Source of the DNA: a virus
Lineage: Duplodnaviria > Heunggongvirae > Uroviricota > Caudoviricetes
DNA length: 6,105 nt
Strand: one strand, 5' to 3'
Virus record (IMG/VR): IMGVR_UViG_3300039366_000164
Location: 1-6,105 of that record
The first letter of the stretch is position 1; every line of letters begins with the position of its first letter. The notes beneath the pieces were generated by a model. The model did not search any database. It was given only the letters and a program-made list of their open reading frames with translations, and was not told where the DNA came from. Position numbers and translations under genes: made by a program. Below, one piece after another: positions 1-6,105 of this stretch.

Positions 1-2313
1 ACAGCGTTATATTCACCCATAGCATTGGCATCAACAGTTGAGTATGGTGAGACAGTTGATGGTGTTGTCCTGGAAAAAGATATCCAGCTGGTTTATGGGA
101 CCGCCAATAATACGAAAATCAATCCTGGCGGAGAACAGCATATTAAAGAATTTGGTATAAGTAGTAATACTGAAATTAACGGCGGGTATCAGTACATTGA
201 AATGAATGGCACCGCAGAATACTCAGTATTAAATGACGGTTATCAAATTGTTCAAATGGGTGGCGCGGCAAACCAGACTACCCTCAATAATGGTGTGCTA
301 CAGGTTTATGGCGCAGCGAATGATCCCACGATTAAAGGCGGGCGCTTAATCGTTGAAAAAGATGGGATTACCGTCCTTGCCGCTATCGAAAAGGGAGGAT
401 TACTGGAGGTTAAAGAGGGGGGATTAGCGATTGCGGTAGATCAGAAAGCAGGCGGAAAATTAATTGTCTCAACGAATGCGCTGGAAGTGAGTGGTACAAA
501 CAGTAAAGGTCAATTTAGTATAAAAGATGGTGTGTCAAAAAATTATGAACTGGATGATGGTTCCGGGCTCATTGTTATGGAGGACACGCAGGCCATTGAT
601 ACTATCCTTGATGAGCATGCCACTATGCAATCGCTGGGAAAGGATACTGGGACGAGAGTGCAGGCAAATGCGGTGTATGATCTCGGTCGATCAGATCAGA
701 ATGGAAGTATCACGTATTCCTCAAAAGCCATCTCTGAAAATATGGTTATCAACAATGGCCGCGCTAACGTCTGGGCTGGCACAATGGTTAACGTTTCAGT
801 CAGAGGGAATGATGGCATTCTTGAGGTCATGAAGCCGCAAATAAATTATGCACCCGCAATGTTGGTGGGTAAGGTAGTGGTTTCTGAGGGCGCTTCTTTT
901 AGAACGCATGGTGCCGTGGATACCAGCAAAGCGGACGTTTCGCTCGAAAATAGCGTATGGACCATCATTGCCGATATCACTACGACGAACCAAAACACCC
1001 TCCTCAACTTAGCCAACCTTGCGATGTCTGACGCAAATGTGATTATGATGGATGAGCCAGTGACTCGTTCATCAGTGACGGCAAGTGCGGAAAATTTCAT
1101 TACGTTGACCACCAATACCCTGTCGGGAAACGGCAATTTTTATATGCGTACCGATATGGCTAATCATCAGAGCGATCAGCTCAACGTCACCGGTCAGGCA
1201 ACAGGTGATTTCAAAATATTCGTGACGGACACCGGTGCCAGCCCGGCAGCAGGAGATAGCCTTACACTGGTAACAACGGGCGGCGGTGATGCTGCATTTA
1301 CGTTGGGCAATGCTGGAGGCGTTGTTGATATCGGTACGTATGAATATACCTTGCTGGATAATGGCAACCATAGCTGGAGTTTGGCAGAGAATCGCGCGCA
1401 AATTACCCCTTCAACCACTGATGTGCTGAATATGGCGGCCGCACAACCGCTGGTATTTGATGCAGAACTGGACACCGTGCGTGAGCGTCTTGGTAGCGTA
1501 AAAGGCGTTAGTTACGATACGGCGATGTGGAGTTCGGCAATTAACACCCGCAACAACGTGACCACTGATGCGGGAGCTGGTTTTGAGCAAACATTGACGG
1601 GCCTGACGCTCGGTATCGATAGCCGTTTCTCCCGTGAAGAAAGCAGTACAATTCGCGGCTTGTTCTTTGGTTACTCTCATTCTGATATTGGTTTTGATCG
1701 CGGCGGAAAAGGTAATATCGATAGCTATACCCTGGGGGCTTATGCCGGTTGGGAGCATCAGAACGGTGCCTATGTTGATGGGGTGGTGAAAGTTGACCGT
1801 TTTGCCAACACCATCCATGGCAAGATGAGTAATGGGGCAACAGCGTTTGGCGATTACAATAGTAACGGCGCGGGTGCTCATGTTGAGAGCGGGTTCCGTT
1901 GGGTTGACGGATTGTGGAGTGTTAGACCCTATCTGGCCTTTACCGGCTTTACCACAGATGGTCAGGACTACACGTTATCAAACGGCATGCGCGCTGATGT
2001 GGGAAATACCCGGATATTACGCGCTGAAGCGGGAACGGCGGTAAGCTATCACATGGACCTGCAAAATGGTACGACGCTGGAACCCTGGCTGAAAGCCGCC
2101 GTACGTCAGGAATACGCCGATTCTAACCAGGTGAAAGTTAATGACGATGGCAAATTTAATAATGATGTGGCTGGAGCCCGTGGCGTTTATCAGGCTGGGA
2201 TAAGGTCATCGTTTACCCCGACGTTAAGCGGTCATTTGTCAGTCAGCTATGGCAATGGCGCAGGGGTAGAATCGCCGTGGAATACTCAGGCGGGTGTGGT
2301 CTGGACGTTCTGA
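1..2313 (+). CDS. yejO: AIDA-I-type autotransporter adhesin, 5'-partial (gene begins upstream of window); passenger beta-helix repeats plus C-terminal outer-membrane beta-barrel translocator domain
   Basis: Seen: frame 1 is open from base 1 to TGA at 2311-2313 (tandem TGA TAA); the TTG at 25 in the ORF track is not the real start. Translation shows Gly/Asn/Thr-rich ~20-aa repeats typical of pertactin/AIDA passengers (e.g. VYGTANNTKINPGG, VYGAANDPTIKGG), an autotransporter linker (AAQPLVFDAELDTVRERLG, near nt 1440) and a beta-barrel ending in the aromatic signature ...GVVWTF. Symbol is by synteny only: convergent tRNA-Pro about 100 bp downstream matches my recollection of the K-12 proL/yejO arrangement; not verified by alignment. 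Confidence 0.85.
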   Translation, partial: TALYSPIALASTVEYGETVDGVVLEKDIQLVYGTANNTKINPGGEQHIKEFGISSNTEINGGYQYIEMNGTAEYSVLNDGYQIVQMGGAANQTTLNNGVLQVYGAANDPTIKGGRLIVEKDGITVLAAIEKGGLLEVKEGGLAIAVDQKAGGKLIVSTNALEVSGTNSKGQFSIKDGVSKNYELDDGSGLIVMEDTQAIDTILDEHATMQSLGKDTGTRVQANAVYDLGRSDQNGSITYSSKAISENMVINNGRANVWAGTMVNVSVRGNDGILEVMKPQINYAPAMLVGKVVVSEGASFRTHGAVDTSKADVSLENSVWTIIADITTTNQNTLLNLANLAMSDANVIMMDEPVTRSSVTASAENFITLTTNTLSGNGNFYMRTDMANHQSDQLNVTGQATGDFKIFVTDTGASPAAGDSLTLVTTGGGDAAFTLGNAGGVVDIGTYEYTLLDNGNHSWSLAENRAQITPSTTDVLNMAAAQPLVFDAELDTVRERLGSVKGVSYDTAMWSSAINTRNNVTTDAGAGFEQTLTGLTLGIDSRFSREESSTIRGLFFGYSHSDIGFDRGGKGNIDSYTLGAYAGWEHQNGAYVDGVVKVDRFANTIHGKMSNGATAFGDYNSNGAGAHVESGFRWVDGLWSVRPYLAFTGFTTDGQDYTLSNGMRADVGNTRILRAEAGTAVSYHMDLQNGTTLEPWLKAAVRQEYADSNQVKVNDDGKFNNDVAGARGVYQAGIRSSFTPTLSGHLSVSYGNGAGVESPWNTQAGVVWTF

Positions 2314-2374: not shown

Positions 2375-2406
2375 AAAAAAACCAACCGTAATGGTTGGTT
2401 TTTTTT
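2375..2406. terminator. Bidirectional rho-independent terminator (A6, 7-bp stem ACCAACC/GGTTGGT, 5-nt loop, T7)
   Basis: Seen: aaaaaa-ACCAACC-gtaat-GGTTGGT-ttttttt. Perfect stem with A-run on one side and T-run on the other, so it can terminate both the plus-strand autotransporter gene and the minus-strand tRNA whose 3' end is at 2415. Confidence 0.6.
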
Positions 2407-2414
2407 GGGATTTT

Positions 2415-2462
2415 TGGTCGGCACGAGAGGATTTGAACCTCCGACCCCCGACACCCCATGTC
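2415..2462 (-). other. 3' fragment (~48 nt) of tRNA-Pro (proL-like): att core copy at a prophage/chromosome junction, not a functional tRNA
   Basis: Seen: minus strand reads GACATGGGGTGTCGGGGGTCGGAGGTTCAAATCCTCTCGTGCCGACCA, i.e. anticodon loop with GGG anticodon, variable loop, T-arm (GGAGG-TTCAAAT-CCTCT), acceptor 3' strand and CCA. Upstream of this (2463-2492) there is no U8, no D-loop GG, no D-stem, and the anticodon stem is mispaired at its outer two positions. Established knowledge: integrases targeting tRNA 3' ends leave a partial 3' copy at one prophage end. Exact left boundary of identity is uncertain by a few nt. Confidence 0.75.
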
Positions 2463-2511
2463 ACCGCGCCTGAAACGCTGGAGGCCGCGCCGTTACTGGG
2501 CTGGTGGGGTG

Positions 2512-2540
2512 TTTTACTGTATGCGCAAACAGTGTATAAT
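2512..2540 (+). promoter_or_regulatory. Candidate sigma70 promoter (-35 TTTACT, 17-bp spacer, -10 TATAAT) facing the cargo cassette
   Basis: Seen: perfect TATAAT at 2535-2540 with TTTACT at 2512-2517. A consensus TTGACA also occurs at 2657-2662 but has no convincing -10 at 16-18 bp. Sequence-pattern prediction only. Confidence 0.3.
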
Positions 2541-2702
2541 TCGCAAAATTCACGCTATATACATCAATGACTTAGGTGGTGGTTTCTCCCCATATAATTT
2601 TTTTACTTTTTGATCACAAGCCTTTTTTTTGATAAAAGTTTGCTACGGTTTCTGCCTTGACATAAGATTGAGTTGAAACCTCAGCTTGATGAGGAGGAGC
2701 AA

Positions 2703-2903
2703 ATGGCAAATAACAAACAAAGACATGTTGATGACATGACGGACTATGCTCGCATCAGAGTTGGCTCGAGGGGAGGTGCTTACATACCCTCTGAGGAAAT
2801 TGCCAATCTCCCTGAAGTCAGGGATATGCAGCAGCGAGCAGCAGCTATAGTAGGACGAGCTGCTAGAGTGCAAACTATGCAAAAAGCAAAGGAAAAGGTT
2901 TAG
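2703..2903 (+). CDS. Hypothetical small basic protein (66 aa), first gene of AT-rich cargo cassette; function unknown
   Basis: Seen: ATG at 2703 preceded by strong SD GAGGAGG (2691-2697) with 5-nt spacer; stop TAG 2901-2903. The ORF-track start at 2673 is a TTG with no SD, so I prefer 2703. Translation MANNKQRHVDDMTDYARIRVGSRGG... is Arg/Lys-rich (12 basic vs 8 acidic residues). No family recognised by eye. Confidence 0.6.
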   Translation: MANNKQRHVDDMTDYARIRVGSRGGAYIPSEEIANLPEVRDMQQRAAAIVGRAARVQTMQKAKEKV

Positions 2904-2907
2904 CTAG

Positions 2908-3759
2908 GTGATTGCTTTACTACTGATTCCCATTCTTGTTAGCGGCTACATTTTAGTAGTCGCTAATTTATATCATTACTATCAATTGCATCGATACGAT
3001 GGCCAACTTTTGTATATAAAAGTTGCAGCTCATGGAACAATGAGTGTTGTTTTTGTGATTTTAGCAGCAGTAGTAGTGAAATATTTCTTTCCTAATTTTC
3101 ACCCAATAGGAATGCTTTCAGATATTCTTAATGTCAAGAAAATAATAAATGGTAATAAAGCTGAAACATGGCTTGCTTTGATTTCATTATCATCAATTAT
3201 ATTTTCTTTAATTTGGGTGGCTTTAGTTTGGTTAAAAAATATGTTTTTTGGTTTCTTTTGTGAAAAGAAACATCATGAAAACATCTTTCATGCTAAGAAA
3301 CTTAGAGTATTAAGAAAAACAATTTCTAACTCAACTTTGGATAGTATGCTTTTAGATGCATTAGAAAGCAGTCCTAAAGAACCGATTCTAATAACCTTAT
3401 CTTCACGGAAAGTTTATGTTGGTATAGTTAATGGAATTCAAGAACCAACAGAAAGCGAAGCGCCAAATAGTTATATATCAATTTTCCCTATTATGTCAGG
3501 CTATAGAGATAAAGATACTCTTTCCATCACCTTTACGAATTCATATCCATCAGAAGTACTAGTGAGTTCAGCTATTACAATGGACTCCCAAAAAAGGCAT
3601 AAAGTGAAAAATATGGATATAATATTTCGTGCTGATGAAATTTCTCATCTTTCATGGTTCGATTTTGAACTATTTGAACAAGTCAATGATTCGATGAAGC
3701 ACGATACCATTGACTTGCGAAGTGAGACTTACTCAGGGGAAACTAGCGAAAATTTTTAG
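2908..3759 (+). CDS. Hypothetical membrane protein (283 aa): three predicted N-terminal TM helices plus ~170-aa soluble C-terminal domain; function unknown
   Basis: Seen: GTG at 2908, 4 nt after the upstream stop (translational coupling), purine-rich AAGGAAAAGG 11-20 nt upstream. Hydrophobic segments IALLLIPILVSGYILVVANLY, MSVVFVILAAVVVKYFF, WLALISLSSIIFSLIWVALVWL, then a polar C-terminal domain. Very AT-rich, AT-biased codons. Start codon uncertain (first in-frame ATG would delete TM1). No family recognised. Confidence 0.65.
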   Translation: MIALLLIPILVSGYILVVANLYHYYQLHRYDGQLLYIKVAAHGTMSVVFVILAAVVVKYFFPNFHPIGMLSDILNVKKIINGNKAETWLALISLSSIIFSLIWVALVWLKNMFFGFFCEKKHHENIFHAKKLRVLRKTISNSTLDSMLLDALESSPKEPILITLSSRKVYVGIVNGIQEPTESEAPNSYISIFPIMSGYRDKDTLSITFTNSYPSEVLVSSAITMDSQKRHKVKNMDIIFRADEISHLSWFDFELFEQVNDSMKHDTIDLRSETYSGETSENF

Positions 3760-4945
3760 TAATTTCAGGTTTCGCTAAAATTTCAGCATGAGGTACACAC
3801 ACCCAATCGATATGATTTTTAGTATAAATTTTTGTAGATTTGGCGTCGCTGTGTGCCATGCGGCCTTGCGGATCTATTCCCTGCTGATCGAAAAGGTGTG
3901 CCGCCAGCGCACGGATTTCGTGGAAGGTTGGTCTTTCTTCCATGGGTACATTGTCAAATAGTCTCAACCGATCACGAATTGCGGAAAACGATCTACTTAA
4001 ATAATCTGGGGCAACTTGTGTCGGATGTGAAACCTCTTTGCTTCGTTTAACTTGGCGTTCTGGGATCCTGTGAACGACAAACGGACTTGCCACATTATCT
4101 CTGCTATCGTCAATTATCCGTTTCAACTCTTCACCAATCGGTATTGCAACGTGTGATGCCTCTTTTTTTTGTACTTTCTGCCTATGGATATATAGTGTCC
4201 CATAAATACCGTTTTTTGGCTGTTCTAACCATACGCACCCGCAGATGCCGTCTTTAGGTTCGCGAATTGAGTAACGGATTCGCGATACTTCGAGTCGTGC
4301 ATGTGTAGTTTGCAATGCTAGATCCATTGCTGTTCTTAACCATGGTGCAGCGGCCTGCCTGATAGCTATAAAATGCTCGAGTGACAGGCGCCGTCTTTTC
4401 TTCTCATCAGTCCTACGCATTTTTTTTCTGATGGCCGGGTTATCCAGCATTAGTGATTCATCGACCGCATAAGAGAACAACTTTTTAAGAAAGCTGACCT
4501 TTCTGTTCTGCACATTTGCGGATGCGCTGGCATGATATTTGTTGATGTAGGTATTAACGTGTTCAAGTTCGATATCGCATGCCGGAACATTTACGAAAAA
4601 CGCTTTTACGCGTAGAGCGTCATTTTTCCAGTCATCTAAGGTACTCTGGGAAGGACGTTCGTCTTCGATAATCCGGGTCATTATGTGATCAACATGTTCA
4701 GCAAATGGTTTTGCTTCTCCGATAACACCGCCAGATTCTCTAATAAGATTTTCTACTGATGGAGATAATTCTGGTCTCATCCTCAGGTTGTACTCTCTGG
4801 CGATTGCAATAGCTATTGCCCTATCCTTACCTATATTTTTCTTCTTTCCGGTAATAAGTGTGAATTTATAAACACCTCGATCTTTATCAAAAATCAGATA
4901 ATCAGGAAGATGTCTGTATTCTTTTTTACGTGGCCTTGCCGCCAT
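3743..4945 (-). CDS. int: Site-specific tyrosine recombinase, lambda-family phage integrase
   Basis: Seen: 400-aa ORF. N-terminus MAARPRKKEYRHLPDYLIFDKDRGVYKFTLITGKKKNIGKDRAIAIAIA parallels the lambda Int arm-binding domain as I recall it (R-x-LP-x-L ... GK ... G-x-DR-x-IAI). C-terminus has HEIRALAAHLF and HSDAKSTKIYTKNH, consistent with the conserved His/Arg and catalytic Tyr box. Start: ATG at 4945 has SD GAGGGG 5 nt upstream; the GTG at 4951 from the ORF track overlaps the xis stop (GTGA) and is the alternative. Confidence 0.93.
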   Translation of the reverse strand: MAARPRKKEYRHLPDYLIFDKDRGVYKFTLITGKKKNIGKDRAIAIAIAREYNLRMRPELSPSVENLIRESGGVIGEAKPFAEHVDHIMTRIIEDERPSQSTLDDWKNDALRVKAFFVNVPACDIELEHVNTYINKYHASASANVQNRKVSFLKKLFSYAVDESLMLDNPAIRKKMRRTDEKKRRRLSLEHFIAIRQAAAPWLRTAMDLALQTTHARLEVSRIRYSIREPKDGICGCVWLEQPKNGIYGTLYIHRQKVQKKEASHVAIPIGEELKRIIDDSRDNVASPFVVHRIPERQVKRSKEVSHPTQVAPDYLSRSFSAIRDRLRLFDNVPMEERPTFHEIRALAAHLFDQQGIDPQGRMAHSDAKSTKIYTKNHIDWVCVPHAEILAKPEITKNFR

Positions 4946-4947
4946 GG

Positions 4948-5157
4948 TCACCCCTCGTTTATTAACTTGCGAACAGCTTGACTAACCATTGAGTCGACTC
5001 CCCATTTTTCTGTTTCGCAGACAAAAACAGAACCGTCCACGATGCGTCCCATGAGTAGACCGTTCTCGACCCAACGTTTTATCGTTCGGTTGTCAGGAAT
5101 TGAGCCATTAGAGAATTCACGGCGTCCCCATTGGCTCGCTTTCATTAGTTTTGCCAT
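4948..5157 (-). CDS. xis: Excisionase (lambda Xis-like recombination directionality factor)
   Basis: Seen: 69-aa ORF from ATG at 5157 (SD GGAG 8 nt upstream); stop TGA at 4950-4948 abuts/overlaps the int start. MAKLMKASQWGRREFSNGSIPDNRTIKRWVENG...DGSVFV resembles the lambda Xis pattern (...EW...R...TVRRWVRE...DGREYLF) from memory. The longer ORF-track version (to 5202) lacks an SD. Confidence 0.75.
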   Translation of the reverse strand: MAKLMKASQWGRREFSNGSIPDNRTIKRWVENGLLMGRIVDGSVFVCETEKWGVDSMVSQAVRKLINEG

Positions 5158-5432
5158 GGCTGTTTCTCCACTTAGCCCGCTGCACTCGGGCAGTAATATC
5201 AAATTCCAGTCCTGATAATTAATTTTGTTCTCTGGTTGCTACCTGTTTTATTGGCCTGATGCTGTCCAGGATAAGACGGCGACGCATGTTTGGCGCACCC
5301 CAACGGTAACCAGTCTTTTTGTCGTAGGATTCACAACGTCCGGCAACCCAGGACGTTTCAGTGGAATGTAATTTCATCCGCTTTTCACCGTCTCGGGTGA
5401 GATAACAATTCCTGTATGAGTTTTTATCACGC

Positions 5433-5795
5433 TCATTTCTTAGTCTCCGGTGCTTTCGGCATTACTGCCCAGTGAGTGATATTGACGTTTTCAAGGTCCC
5501 CGACCTGAAATGTCCACTGCCATTCTCCGGTTTCTTTTTGCCCCCATGTGTACCAGAGAGAACGCCAGCCAATCAGCCAGCCTTCTCCACTAGCATCAAA
5601 TAACAGAACACTTTCATTTGCTGGTGGCAGTTCAGCTGACACTGGTATTATTTTGTTTTCCAGTGCCGCACATTTAGCTTCAAGCGCGTTGAATTTACGT
5701 ACCAGGTACTCAGCATTTGTTTCGTTCACTTTCAGATCTCGCGGTACACATTTCCCGCGAAGAAACCCTTCCATTTCGAAAACATTCATGCGCAT
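5433..5795 (-). CDS. Hypothetical phage early-region protein (120 aa; Trp-rich C-terminal half)
   Basis: Seen: ATG at 5795 with SD GGAG 8 nt upstream (alternative ATG at 5789 forms an ATGA overlap with the upstream gene stop); stop TGA 5435-5433. Same strand and operon context as xis/int. No confident family assignment. Confidence 0.6.
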   Translation of the reverse strand: MRMNVFEMEGFLRGKCVPRDLKVNETNAEYLVRKFNALEAKCAALENKIIPVSAELPPANESVLLFDASGEGWLIGWRSLWYTWGQKETGEWQWTFQVGDLENVNITHWAVMPKAPETKK

Positions 5796-5992
5796 TTGCG
5801 TAACTCCGATAACTCGTTAAAACGTTCCATAAACATCCCGTAGGCCTGGCCCGGTGCCAGTGGAATCACGTTGAACATCTCTGTTGCCGGGATGCCTTCC
5901 AGTACAGGCCAGAAAGAGCCATCATCAAGCCCGAGATCGCGGCGTTCGGTTGCCAGCATGATGAGATCGGCATATTTCACAGGCGTGCTCAT
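5786..5992 (-). CDS. Hypothetical phage early-region protein (68 aa)
   Basis: Seen: ATG at 5992 overlaps the stop of the upstream minus-strand ORF (ATGA) and its own stop overlaps the next gene start, suggesting translational coupling. Weak own SD. No family recognised. Confidence 0.5.
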   Translation of the reverse strand: MSTPVKYADLIMLATERRDLGLDDGSFWPVLEGIPATEMFNVIPLAPGQAYGMFMERFNELSELRKCA

Positions 5993-6105
5993 AACCGGGG
6001 TAACCCGTATTTCTCACGGATTACAGCGTCTATTTTTTCTTCCATCCGTTTATAGTCAGGAAGAAGGCGTTTCAGTGGCGCCGGGATGTCCTGGCAATAC
6101 GCTTC
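5989..6105 (-). CDS. 3' end of a further minus-strand phage gene entering from the right edge (partial; 38 C-terminal codons visible)
   Basis: Seen: minus-strand frame open from 6105 to TGA at 5991-5989 (...EAYCQDIPAPLKRLLPDYKRMEEKIDAVIREKYGLPRL*), overlapping the ATG of the 68-aa gene. Not in the ORF track because truncated by the window edge. Confidence 0.4.
   Translation of the reverse strand, partial: EAYCQDIPAPLKRLLPDYKRMEEKIDAVIREKYGLPRL

Follow-up and report, generated by a model that had tools for sequence, protein, structure and literature searches.

The 6,105-nucleotide stretch of DNA analysed here (hereafter the window) carries, beside a yejO-type autotransporter gene, a sequence that RefSeq/PGAP labels as a plain tRNA-Pro (2415-2492, minus strand), with no pseudogene flag in all inspected genomes with the exact sequence. 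The question raised by this locus is whether that sequence is a tRNA gene in its own right or the mark left by an insertion into one and, in the latter case, what was inserted and where the inserted element ends. Our reading, held with high confidence, is that a decayed lambdoid prophage of ~16 kb lies in the tRNA gene proL, with its integrase-proximal junction (attL, in lambda naming) at window 2407-2460, and that the annotated tRNA-Pro is most likely a chimera, not a working tRNA gene.

The DNA of the window belongs to the E. coli chromosome and is matched at 100% identity by 11 complete genomes, among them NZ_AP027971.1 and those of two APEC O78:H4 strains; at least 80% of it is present in 81 of 5426 genomes. 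The phage arm described below is carried by only 86 of the 5426. The far end of the island was inspected in one 100%-identical genome, NZ_AP027971.1, whose locus (L001) supplied both the second copy of the core and the intact proL used as the reference for comparison (L001 38501-38577, minus strand). The reading frame of the autotransporter gene (window 1-2313, plus strand), the counterpart of K-12 yejO, is intact, with a RefSeq CDS of 789 aa (L001 19944-22313). K-12 yejO is interrupted by IS5, and the yejO copies of CFS3313 and 2020N21-246 contain internal stops.

A displaced proL fragment beside yejO

Alignment to the intact proL of the same genome identifies the minus-strand piece as tRNA positions C31 to A76, which span the anticodon loop, variable loop, T arm, acceptor 3′ strand and CCA, with the anticodon GGG (the GGG of the intact gene is from ARAGORN). 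Identity runs on for 8 trailer bases past the tRNA 3′ end (AAAATCCC, 2407-2414), giving a core of 54 bp. An earlier note on this DNA, made from the letters alone, had described a tRNA-Pro 3′ piece of ~48 nt with the anticodon GGG at 2415-2462, and an island boundary at about 2462. The identity of the piece is borne out (46/46 to proL C31-A76), but its extent overshoots by two bases: the alignment to proL that the note had proposed for locating the first mismatch places it at 2461, the match at 2462 being due to chance, so the boundary lies close to the proposed one, at 2460/2461. The proL site used here is, as judged from this alignment, of the anticodon-centred class, because the identity block begins at the last anticodon-stem pair; from the anticodon arm it continues to the 3′ end of the tRNA. 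Four further Rfam models with matches here (HPnc0260, OrzO-P, Thr_leader, mascRNA) were set aside as chance; all lie far below their gathering scores, and the opposite strand of the tRNA T arm, or the terminator hairpin, accounts for them.

Features of the window, with coordinates, strand and basis
Feature	Position	Strand	Basis or remark
yejO-type autotransporter gene	1-2313	+	Chromosomal; 5′ end just beyond the window; Pfam Pertactin, AIDA and Autotransporter domains
Chromosomal hairpin terminator between converging yejO and proL	2375-2405		Terminator-like site; same hairpin at the K-12 empty site
att core, 54-bp perfect direct repeat	2407-2460	-	Second copy at the far end of the island, L001 38493-38546
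Displaced 3′ fragment of proL tRNA-Pro(GGG), positions 31-76	2415-2460	-	46/46 identity to intact proL
tRNA-like phage arm sequence in place of the tRNA 5′ half	2461-2492	-	Covariance alignment and pair counts
Integrase-proximal att arm	2461-2594		~80% identical to attP of Flotzy, Eeyore and Phi06_2987 S
Small cargo ORF between att arm and integrase gene	2703-2903	+	RefSeq hypothetical protein; phrog_5739, function unknown
Low-GC cargo ORF, 283 aa	2908-3759	+	phrog_3630 (6.9e-75), function unknown
Tyrosine integrase, lambda-type arm-binding N-terminal domain	3743-4951	-	Pfam, PHROG, phage identity
Small ORF directly upstream of the integrase gene	4948-5202	-	RefSeq hypothetical protein 4948-5157

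The island and its two junctions

The earlier note had inferred that an intact tRNA-Pro with the same core must lie outside the window, at the other end of the prophage, and had proposed a search for it. That search found the 54-bp core in the intact proL of NZ_AP027971.1, which adjoins yejM (ARAGORN and RefSeq). Both copies lie on the minus strand in the same orientation with a start-to-start spacing of 16,086 bp, which gives the size of the island, and the fragment is downstream of intact proL in the tRNA sense. The island region holds two core copies only, with no third fragment inside it. In K-12 the site is empty, yejM, proL and yejO following one another without interruption.

The sequences flanking the two cores reveal which piece is which. 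In a six-way alignment, the CCAACC...GGTTGG hairpin found downstream of proL in K-12 lies beside the window fragment, which identifies the fragment as the displaced chromosomal 3′ piece. Behind the intact proL of the lysogen stands a CCAGCC...GGCTGG hairpin, as in phage attP sites, which indicates that in this gene a chromosomal 5′ part is joined to the 3′ part and the terminator of the phage. The prophage terminator (L001 38459-38500) is similar to, although distinct from, the chromosomal one (window 2375-2406); since the prophage brings a similar terminator, the homology of attP to the proL locus extends, in diverged form, beyond the tRNA.

Between the core copies lie yfdP/Q/R-type genes, holins, an endolysin, tail-fibre fragments, IS2, a DinI-like pseudogene, truncated regulatory genes, and the integrase gene with the small ORF upstream of it. 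We have little doubt that this ~16-kb island is a decayed lambdoid prophage inserted in proL, and nothing in the data contradicts such a model. Several prophage genes inside the edge (window 5219-6105; L001 25219-28900) are frameshifted or truncated, namely yfdR, a PerC-family regulator, a methyltransferase and an antiterminator, which makes it unlikely that the element is a viable phage, even if the remnant can perhaps still be excised.

Matching attP sites in free phages and the history of the remnant

Phage matches to the window span 2380-2594 at ~80% identity. In Flotzy (PP925827), Eeyore (PP925821) and Phi06_2987 S (KM389287), arm, core and terminator are contiguous and stand immediately downstream of the integrase gene. 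A phage-specific junction (GTGAC followed by the anticodon loop) is present in 26 IMG/VR stretches, some with phage flanks and some with E. coli flanks. The att arm of the window presumably carries Int arm-type sites and host-factor sites.

A shorter proL-like piece, consisting of the T arm, acceptor 3′ strand and trailer and accompanied by a phage-type terminator, was observed at the right end of the Salmonella prophage Gifsy-2, downstream of sseI (L006 2501-2557; NC_010393.1 44278-44334). Gifsy-2 is not known as a proL integrator, for which reason this piece was probably left over from a mosaic att region.

The arms at the two ends of the island are unlike each other. The near arm is of the type seen in two further loci (L012 and L025), whereas the far-end arm resembles Flotzy-type phages and the trailer and terminator there are of the Flotzy/Gifsy-2 type, so the remnant could be either a mosaic or the collapsed product of two tandem prophages in proL. 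On the latter account, the 16-kb island would be what remains of two tandem proL elements after a deletion between them, its junctions deriving from different phages. There is a precedent for such an arrangement, since L012 (IMGVR_UViG_2923307698_000002, 6650-8160), in which three CACCGGA repeats and the gene of a P4-type integrase (Arm-DNA-bind_3, PF13356, 419 aa) come directly after an arm and core of the window type, is a case of tandem occupancy of proL; the many truncated genes and the IS2 within the island would also fit a deletion. We nonetheless consider a tandem origin unlikely, because the region holds just the two core copies and because mosaic arms are common among lambdoid phages without tandem insertion.

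Integrase and cargo

The integrase gene reads towards the junction, in the tRNA sense. The N-terminus of the protein (residues 3-58) matches Arm-DNA-bind_1 (PF09003, the arm-binding domain of lambda Int) at 26.7 bits, above the cut-off of 22, and the Pfam search gave no match to Arm-DNA-bind_3 (PF13356, DUF4102). For the catalytic domain (PF00589) the score of 17.7 bits stays below the cut-off of 27.1, and the Flotzy homologue reaches 26.9; the motifs HEIR...H...Y (HxxR...H...Y) can nevertheless be read by eye. The protein matches phrog_1 (integrase; 1.4e-30) and is 76% identical to the Flotzy integrase over 393 aa. Integrase activity is a prediction, based on this identity to phage integrases and on the motifs.

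The gene lies 1.28 kb from the fragment and ~13.5 kb from intact proL, that is, on the side of the partial copy as the earlier note had stated, and this position follows from the order of integrase gene then attP, as in Flotzy and Eeyore. The note had further called the arrangement lambda-like rather than P4-like. This description suits the enzyme but fits the layout only loosely: the target of lambda is not a tRNA gene, so lambda has no partial-copy side. The P4-type arrangement, an Arm-DNA-bind_3 integrase beside the intact tRNA gene, is not found in the island.

The ORF directly upstream of the integrase gene is a candidate excisionase on account of its position; Flotzy and Eeyore have a small ORF at the equivalent place, and the protein shows a helix-turn-helix match, which is weak and below cut-off. 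Two cargo ORFs (66-76 aa and 283 aa) fill window 2673-3759 (plus strand) between the att arm and the integrase gene, and a sigma-70-like site at 2513-2540 (plus strand) is directed towards them. The larger has a GC content of 29-34% and a hydrophobic N-terminus; distant homologues lie near the genome ends of Cronobacter, Klebsiella and Pseudomonas phages. A known defence system was considered for this cargo and rejected, since a PADLOC search gave no match to either ORF and both fall in PHROGs with no assigned function.

Proposed mechanism of insertion

The positions of the repeat, the terminators and the integrase gene support the following outline. The phage attP contained its own terminator and an exact copy of the 3′ part of proL, from the last anticodon-stem pair through CCA into a short stretch of trailer, and the phage tyrosine integrase recombined this core with proL. 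The alignment is compatible with exchange at any point of the 54-bp identity; by analogy with other anticodon-centred sites, strand exchange took place most probably in or beside the anticodon loop, the probable 7-bp exchange region. At the yejM side, the product is a regenerated proL composed of chromosomal 5′ part, phage 3′ part and phage terminator. At the window junction, the phage arm abuts the displaced chromosomal 3′ part, followed by the chromosomal terminator ahead of yejO. The insertion spares proL, because the phage carries a copy of the 3′ part of its target.

A chimeric junction annotated as tRNA-Pro

The fragment is preceded, in the tRNA sense, by 32 bases of phage arm that replace the true 5′ half (CGGCGCGGCCTCCAGCGTTTCAGGCGCGGTGA, 2461-2492). 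The earlier note had described this part as unrelated sequence. It is indeed phage arm DNA, but the description is too strong: 17/32 bases are identical to the real 5′ half, and joined to the fragment the arm retains 7/7 acceptor pairs, 3/4 D-stem pairs and 4/5 anticodon-stem pairs, 14/16 cloverleaf pairs in total. To gauge this, 628,297 natural 32-mers, taken from both strands of ~317 kb of fetched loci, were substituted for the arm; 14/16 pairs were reached by 0.16% of them and a full acceptor stem by 0.5%.

Over 15 distinct arm variants from phages and IMG/VR, acceptor and D-stem pairing ranges from 4 to 10 of 11 pairs, with most at 5-7 and a null mean of 6.2. These values do not support the arm as a family-wide relic of a tRNA 5′ half; with pairing near the null across the variants, the resemblance to tRNA is limited to the lineage of the window, L012 and L025 and, for the acceptor only, to that of L010. 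At the homologous position, the attP sites of Flotzy, Eeyore and Phi06_2987 S read TTTACAAG..., which is not acceptor-like, where the window has CGGCGCG. The tRNA-likeness of the arm is most likely due to chance or to lineage-specific drift.

An origin other than chance, in which the 5′ part is the decayed relic of a whole phage-borne tRNA-Pro or has been patched by conversion from intact proL, is possible but rather improbable. The 17 identical bases do lie in patches (CGGC.CG, CAGC, GCGC) and, with the extent of cloverleaf pairing, fit such an origin, as does an acceptor-like YGGCGCG common to two otherwise different arm lineages (window/L012/L025 and L010/L028-30). At the junction of strain 2020N21-246 (L036 2950-3027; NZ_CM125675.1), the same arm is joined to native proL from position 22 onwards, over 55 nt as against 46, which looks like local conversion of the fragment by the intact gene; it implies that the junction boundary can shift, as conversion predicts. 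This extended-identity junction is, however, confined to two assemblies of that one strain, the wider family of arms carries no tRNA signal, and the pairing test was devised after the pattern had been noticed. A stronger form, in which the arm has been kept tRNA-like for a reason, either because attP encodes a transcribed tRNA-Pro-like RNA or because repeated conversion by host proL has pulled 5′ sequence into attP, is very improbable, and a function for the tRNA-like part is judged unlikely. If repeated conversion did occur, it would offer a route by which phage attachment sites gain and extend identity with their target genes.

As for the RefSeq tRNA-Pro at 2415-2492, ARAGORN finds no tRNA within the window, although it calls the intact proL in both L001 and K-12. 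The Rfam tRNA model (RF00005) aligns end to end with 2418-2492 (minus strand), but its 18.1 bits fall short of the gathering score, which is 29. The earlier note had expected a tRNA predictor to fail here or to call a pseudogene; this is what ARAGORN and Rfam bear out, and the RefSeq pipeline departs from it. The RefSeq annotation probably results from the substituted 5′ part pairing so fully in the acceptor stem and the cloverleaf, and it is borderline, as the CFS3313 variant, two bases different, receives no such call. The chimera retains C1:G72, A73, the anticodon GGG with G37, and A14, G15, A21 and C48. Its defects are G8 in place of U8, UU at G18-G19, an extra base before the anticodon stem, which makes the stem lengths irregular, and a G-G mismatch at 27:43. 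The tRNA strand showed no promoter-like site. The minimum-energy fold is a long rod with no cloverleaf, and its stability does not exceed that of shuffled sequences (z = -0.89); thermodynamic folding was discarded as a test of tRNA function, as the genuine proL likewise gives no cloverleaf and neither sequence beats its shuffles.

That 2415-2492 is a genuine second tRNA-Pro(GGG) gene, with a phage 5′ half and a chromosomal 3′ half, expressed and charged, is scarcely credible: the unflagged RefSeq call in every inspected genome with the exact arm (24 genomes hold at least 80%) speaks for it, as do the retained nucleotides and a degree of pairing that so few substitutes equal, but ARAGORN calls nothing, the Rfam score is below threshold, the sequence has the defects listed above, the fold is a rod, the two-base variant goes unannotated, sister attP sites do not pair at the same place, and the tRNA strand has no promoter-like site. 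In our view, the RefSeq call is a marginal false positive.

The mislabelled junction is the one useful by-product of the analysis. RefSeq lists a spurious extra tRNA-Pro gene in ~25 complete E. coli genomes with an identical arm, which would inflate tRNA gene counts and could mislead island finders that expect a fragment, not a gene. The value of the fragment itself is practical, not conceptual, in that it sets one boundary of the proL prophage remnant to the base.

Comparison with known systems

The feature is of a known kind, with a textbook mechanism, a target site that is in the literature and a sequence present in many RefSeq genomes. The yejM-tRNAPro-yejO locus is a phage integration site in Shigella flexneri 1c, where a CP4-57-like integrase gene lies 210 bp from an intact tRNA-Pro between yejM and yejO (PMC4924310). 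Islands of the P4/CP4-57 type, including that one, share with the window island the proL target and the logic of target duplication. They differ in the integrase, which in Shigella flexneri 1c (PMC4924310) is P4-type and ~210 bp from the intact tRNA gene, compared with the lambda-type enzyme described here, at the fragment end and 13.5 kb from the intact gene. The K-12 cryptic prophage CP4-6, at thrW, offers a precedent for the layout, since intF and the intact tRNA gene stand at opposite ends of it, but it has another tRNA target and another integrase (466 aa), and its intF is opposite in direction to the tRNA gene.

Also close are Flotzy, Eeyore and Phi06_2987 S, which have the proL core, the arm (~80% identical over 2380-2594), an integrase 76% identical to that of the window and the same order of DinI/UmuD-like genes, attP and integrase gene. 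In these phages the integrase gene abuts attP, whereas in the window ~1.1 kb of low-GC cargo separates the two; Flotzy and Eeyore have no ORF where the window has the 283-aa one. The Flotzy/Eeyore-type lineage of lambda-type integrases can be added to the known users of the yejM-proL-yejO site.

The ends of islands in tRNA genes are marked by a regenerated tDNA and a displaced fragment; the fragment was a 3′ one in 3760 of 3919 islands, and the site was anticodon-centred in 2083 (PMC4383910). All parts of the Islander signature are present in the island described here: an intact tRNA gene, a same-orientation 3′ fragment, a tyrosine integrase gene between them, an empty site and a free attP. 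As in the anticodon-centred class of Islander tDNA elements (Hudson, Lau and Williams 2015, PMC4383910), the regenerated tRNA gene is at one end and the fragment at the other, with the integrase gene inside, and the identical segment reaches from the anticodon arm to the 3′ end of the tRNA. Nothing essential sets the island apart from that class; the identity continues here for 8 bases beyond the tRNA, and the replacement terminator comes from the phage.
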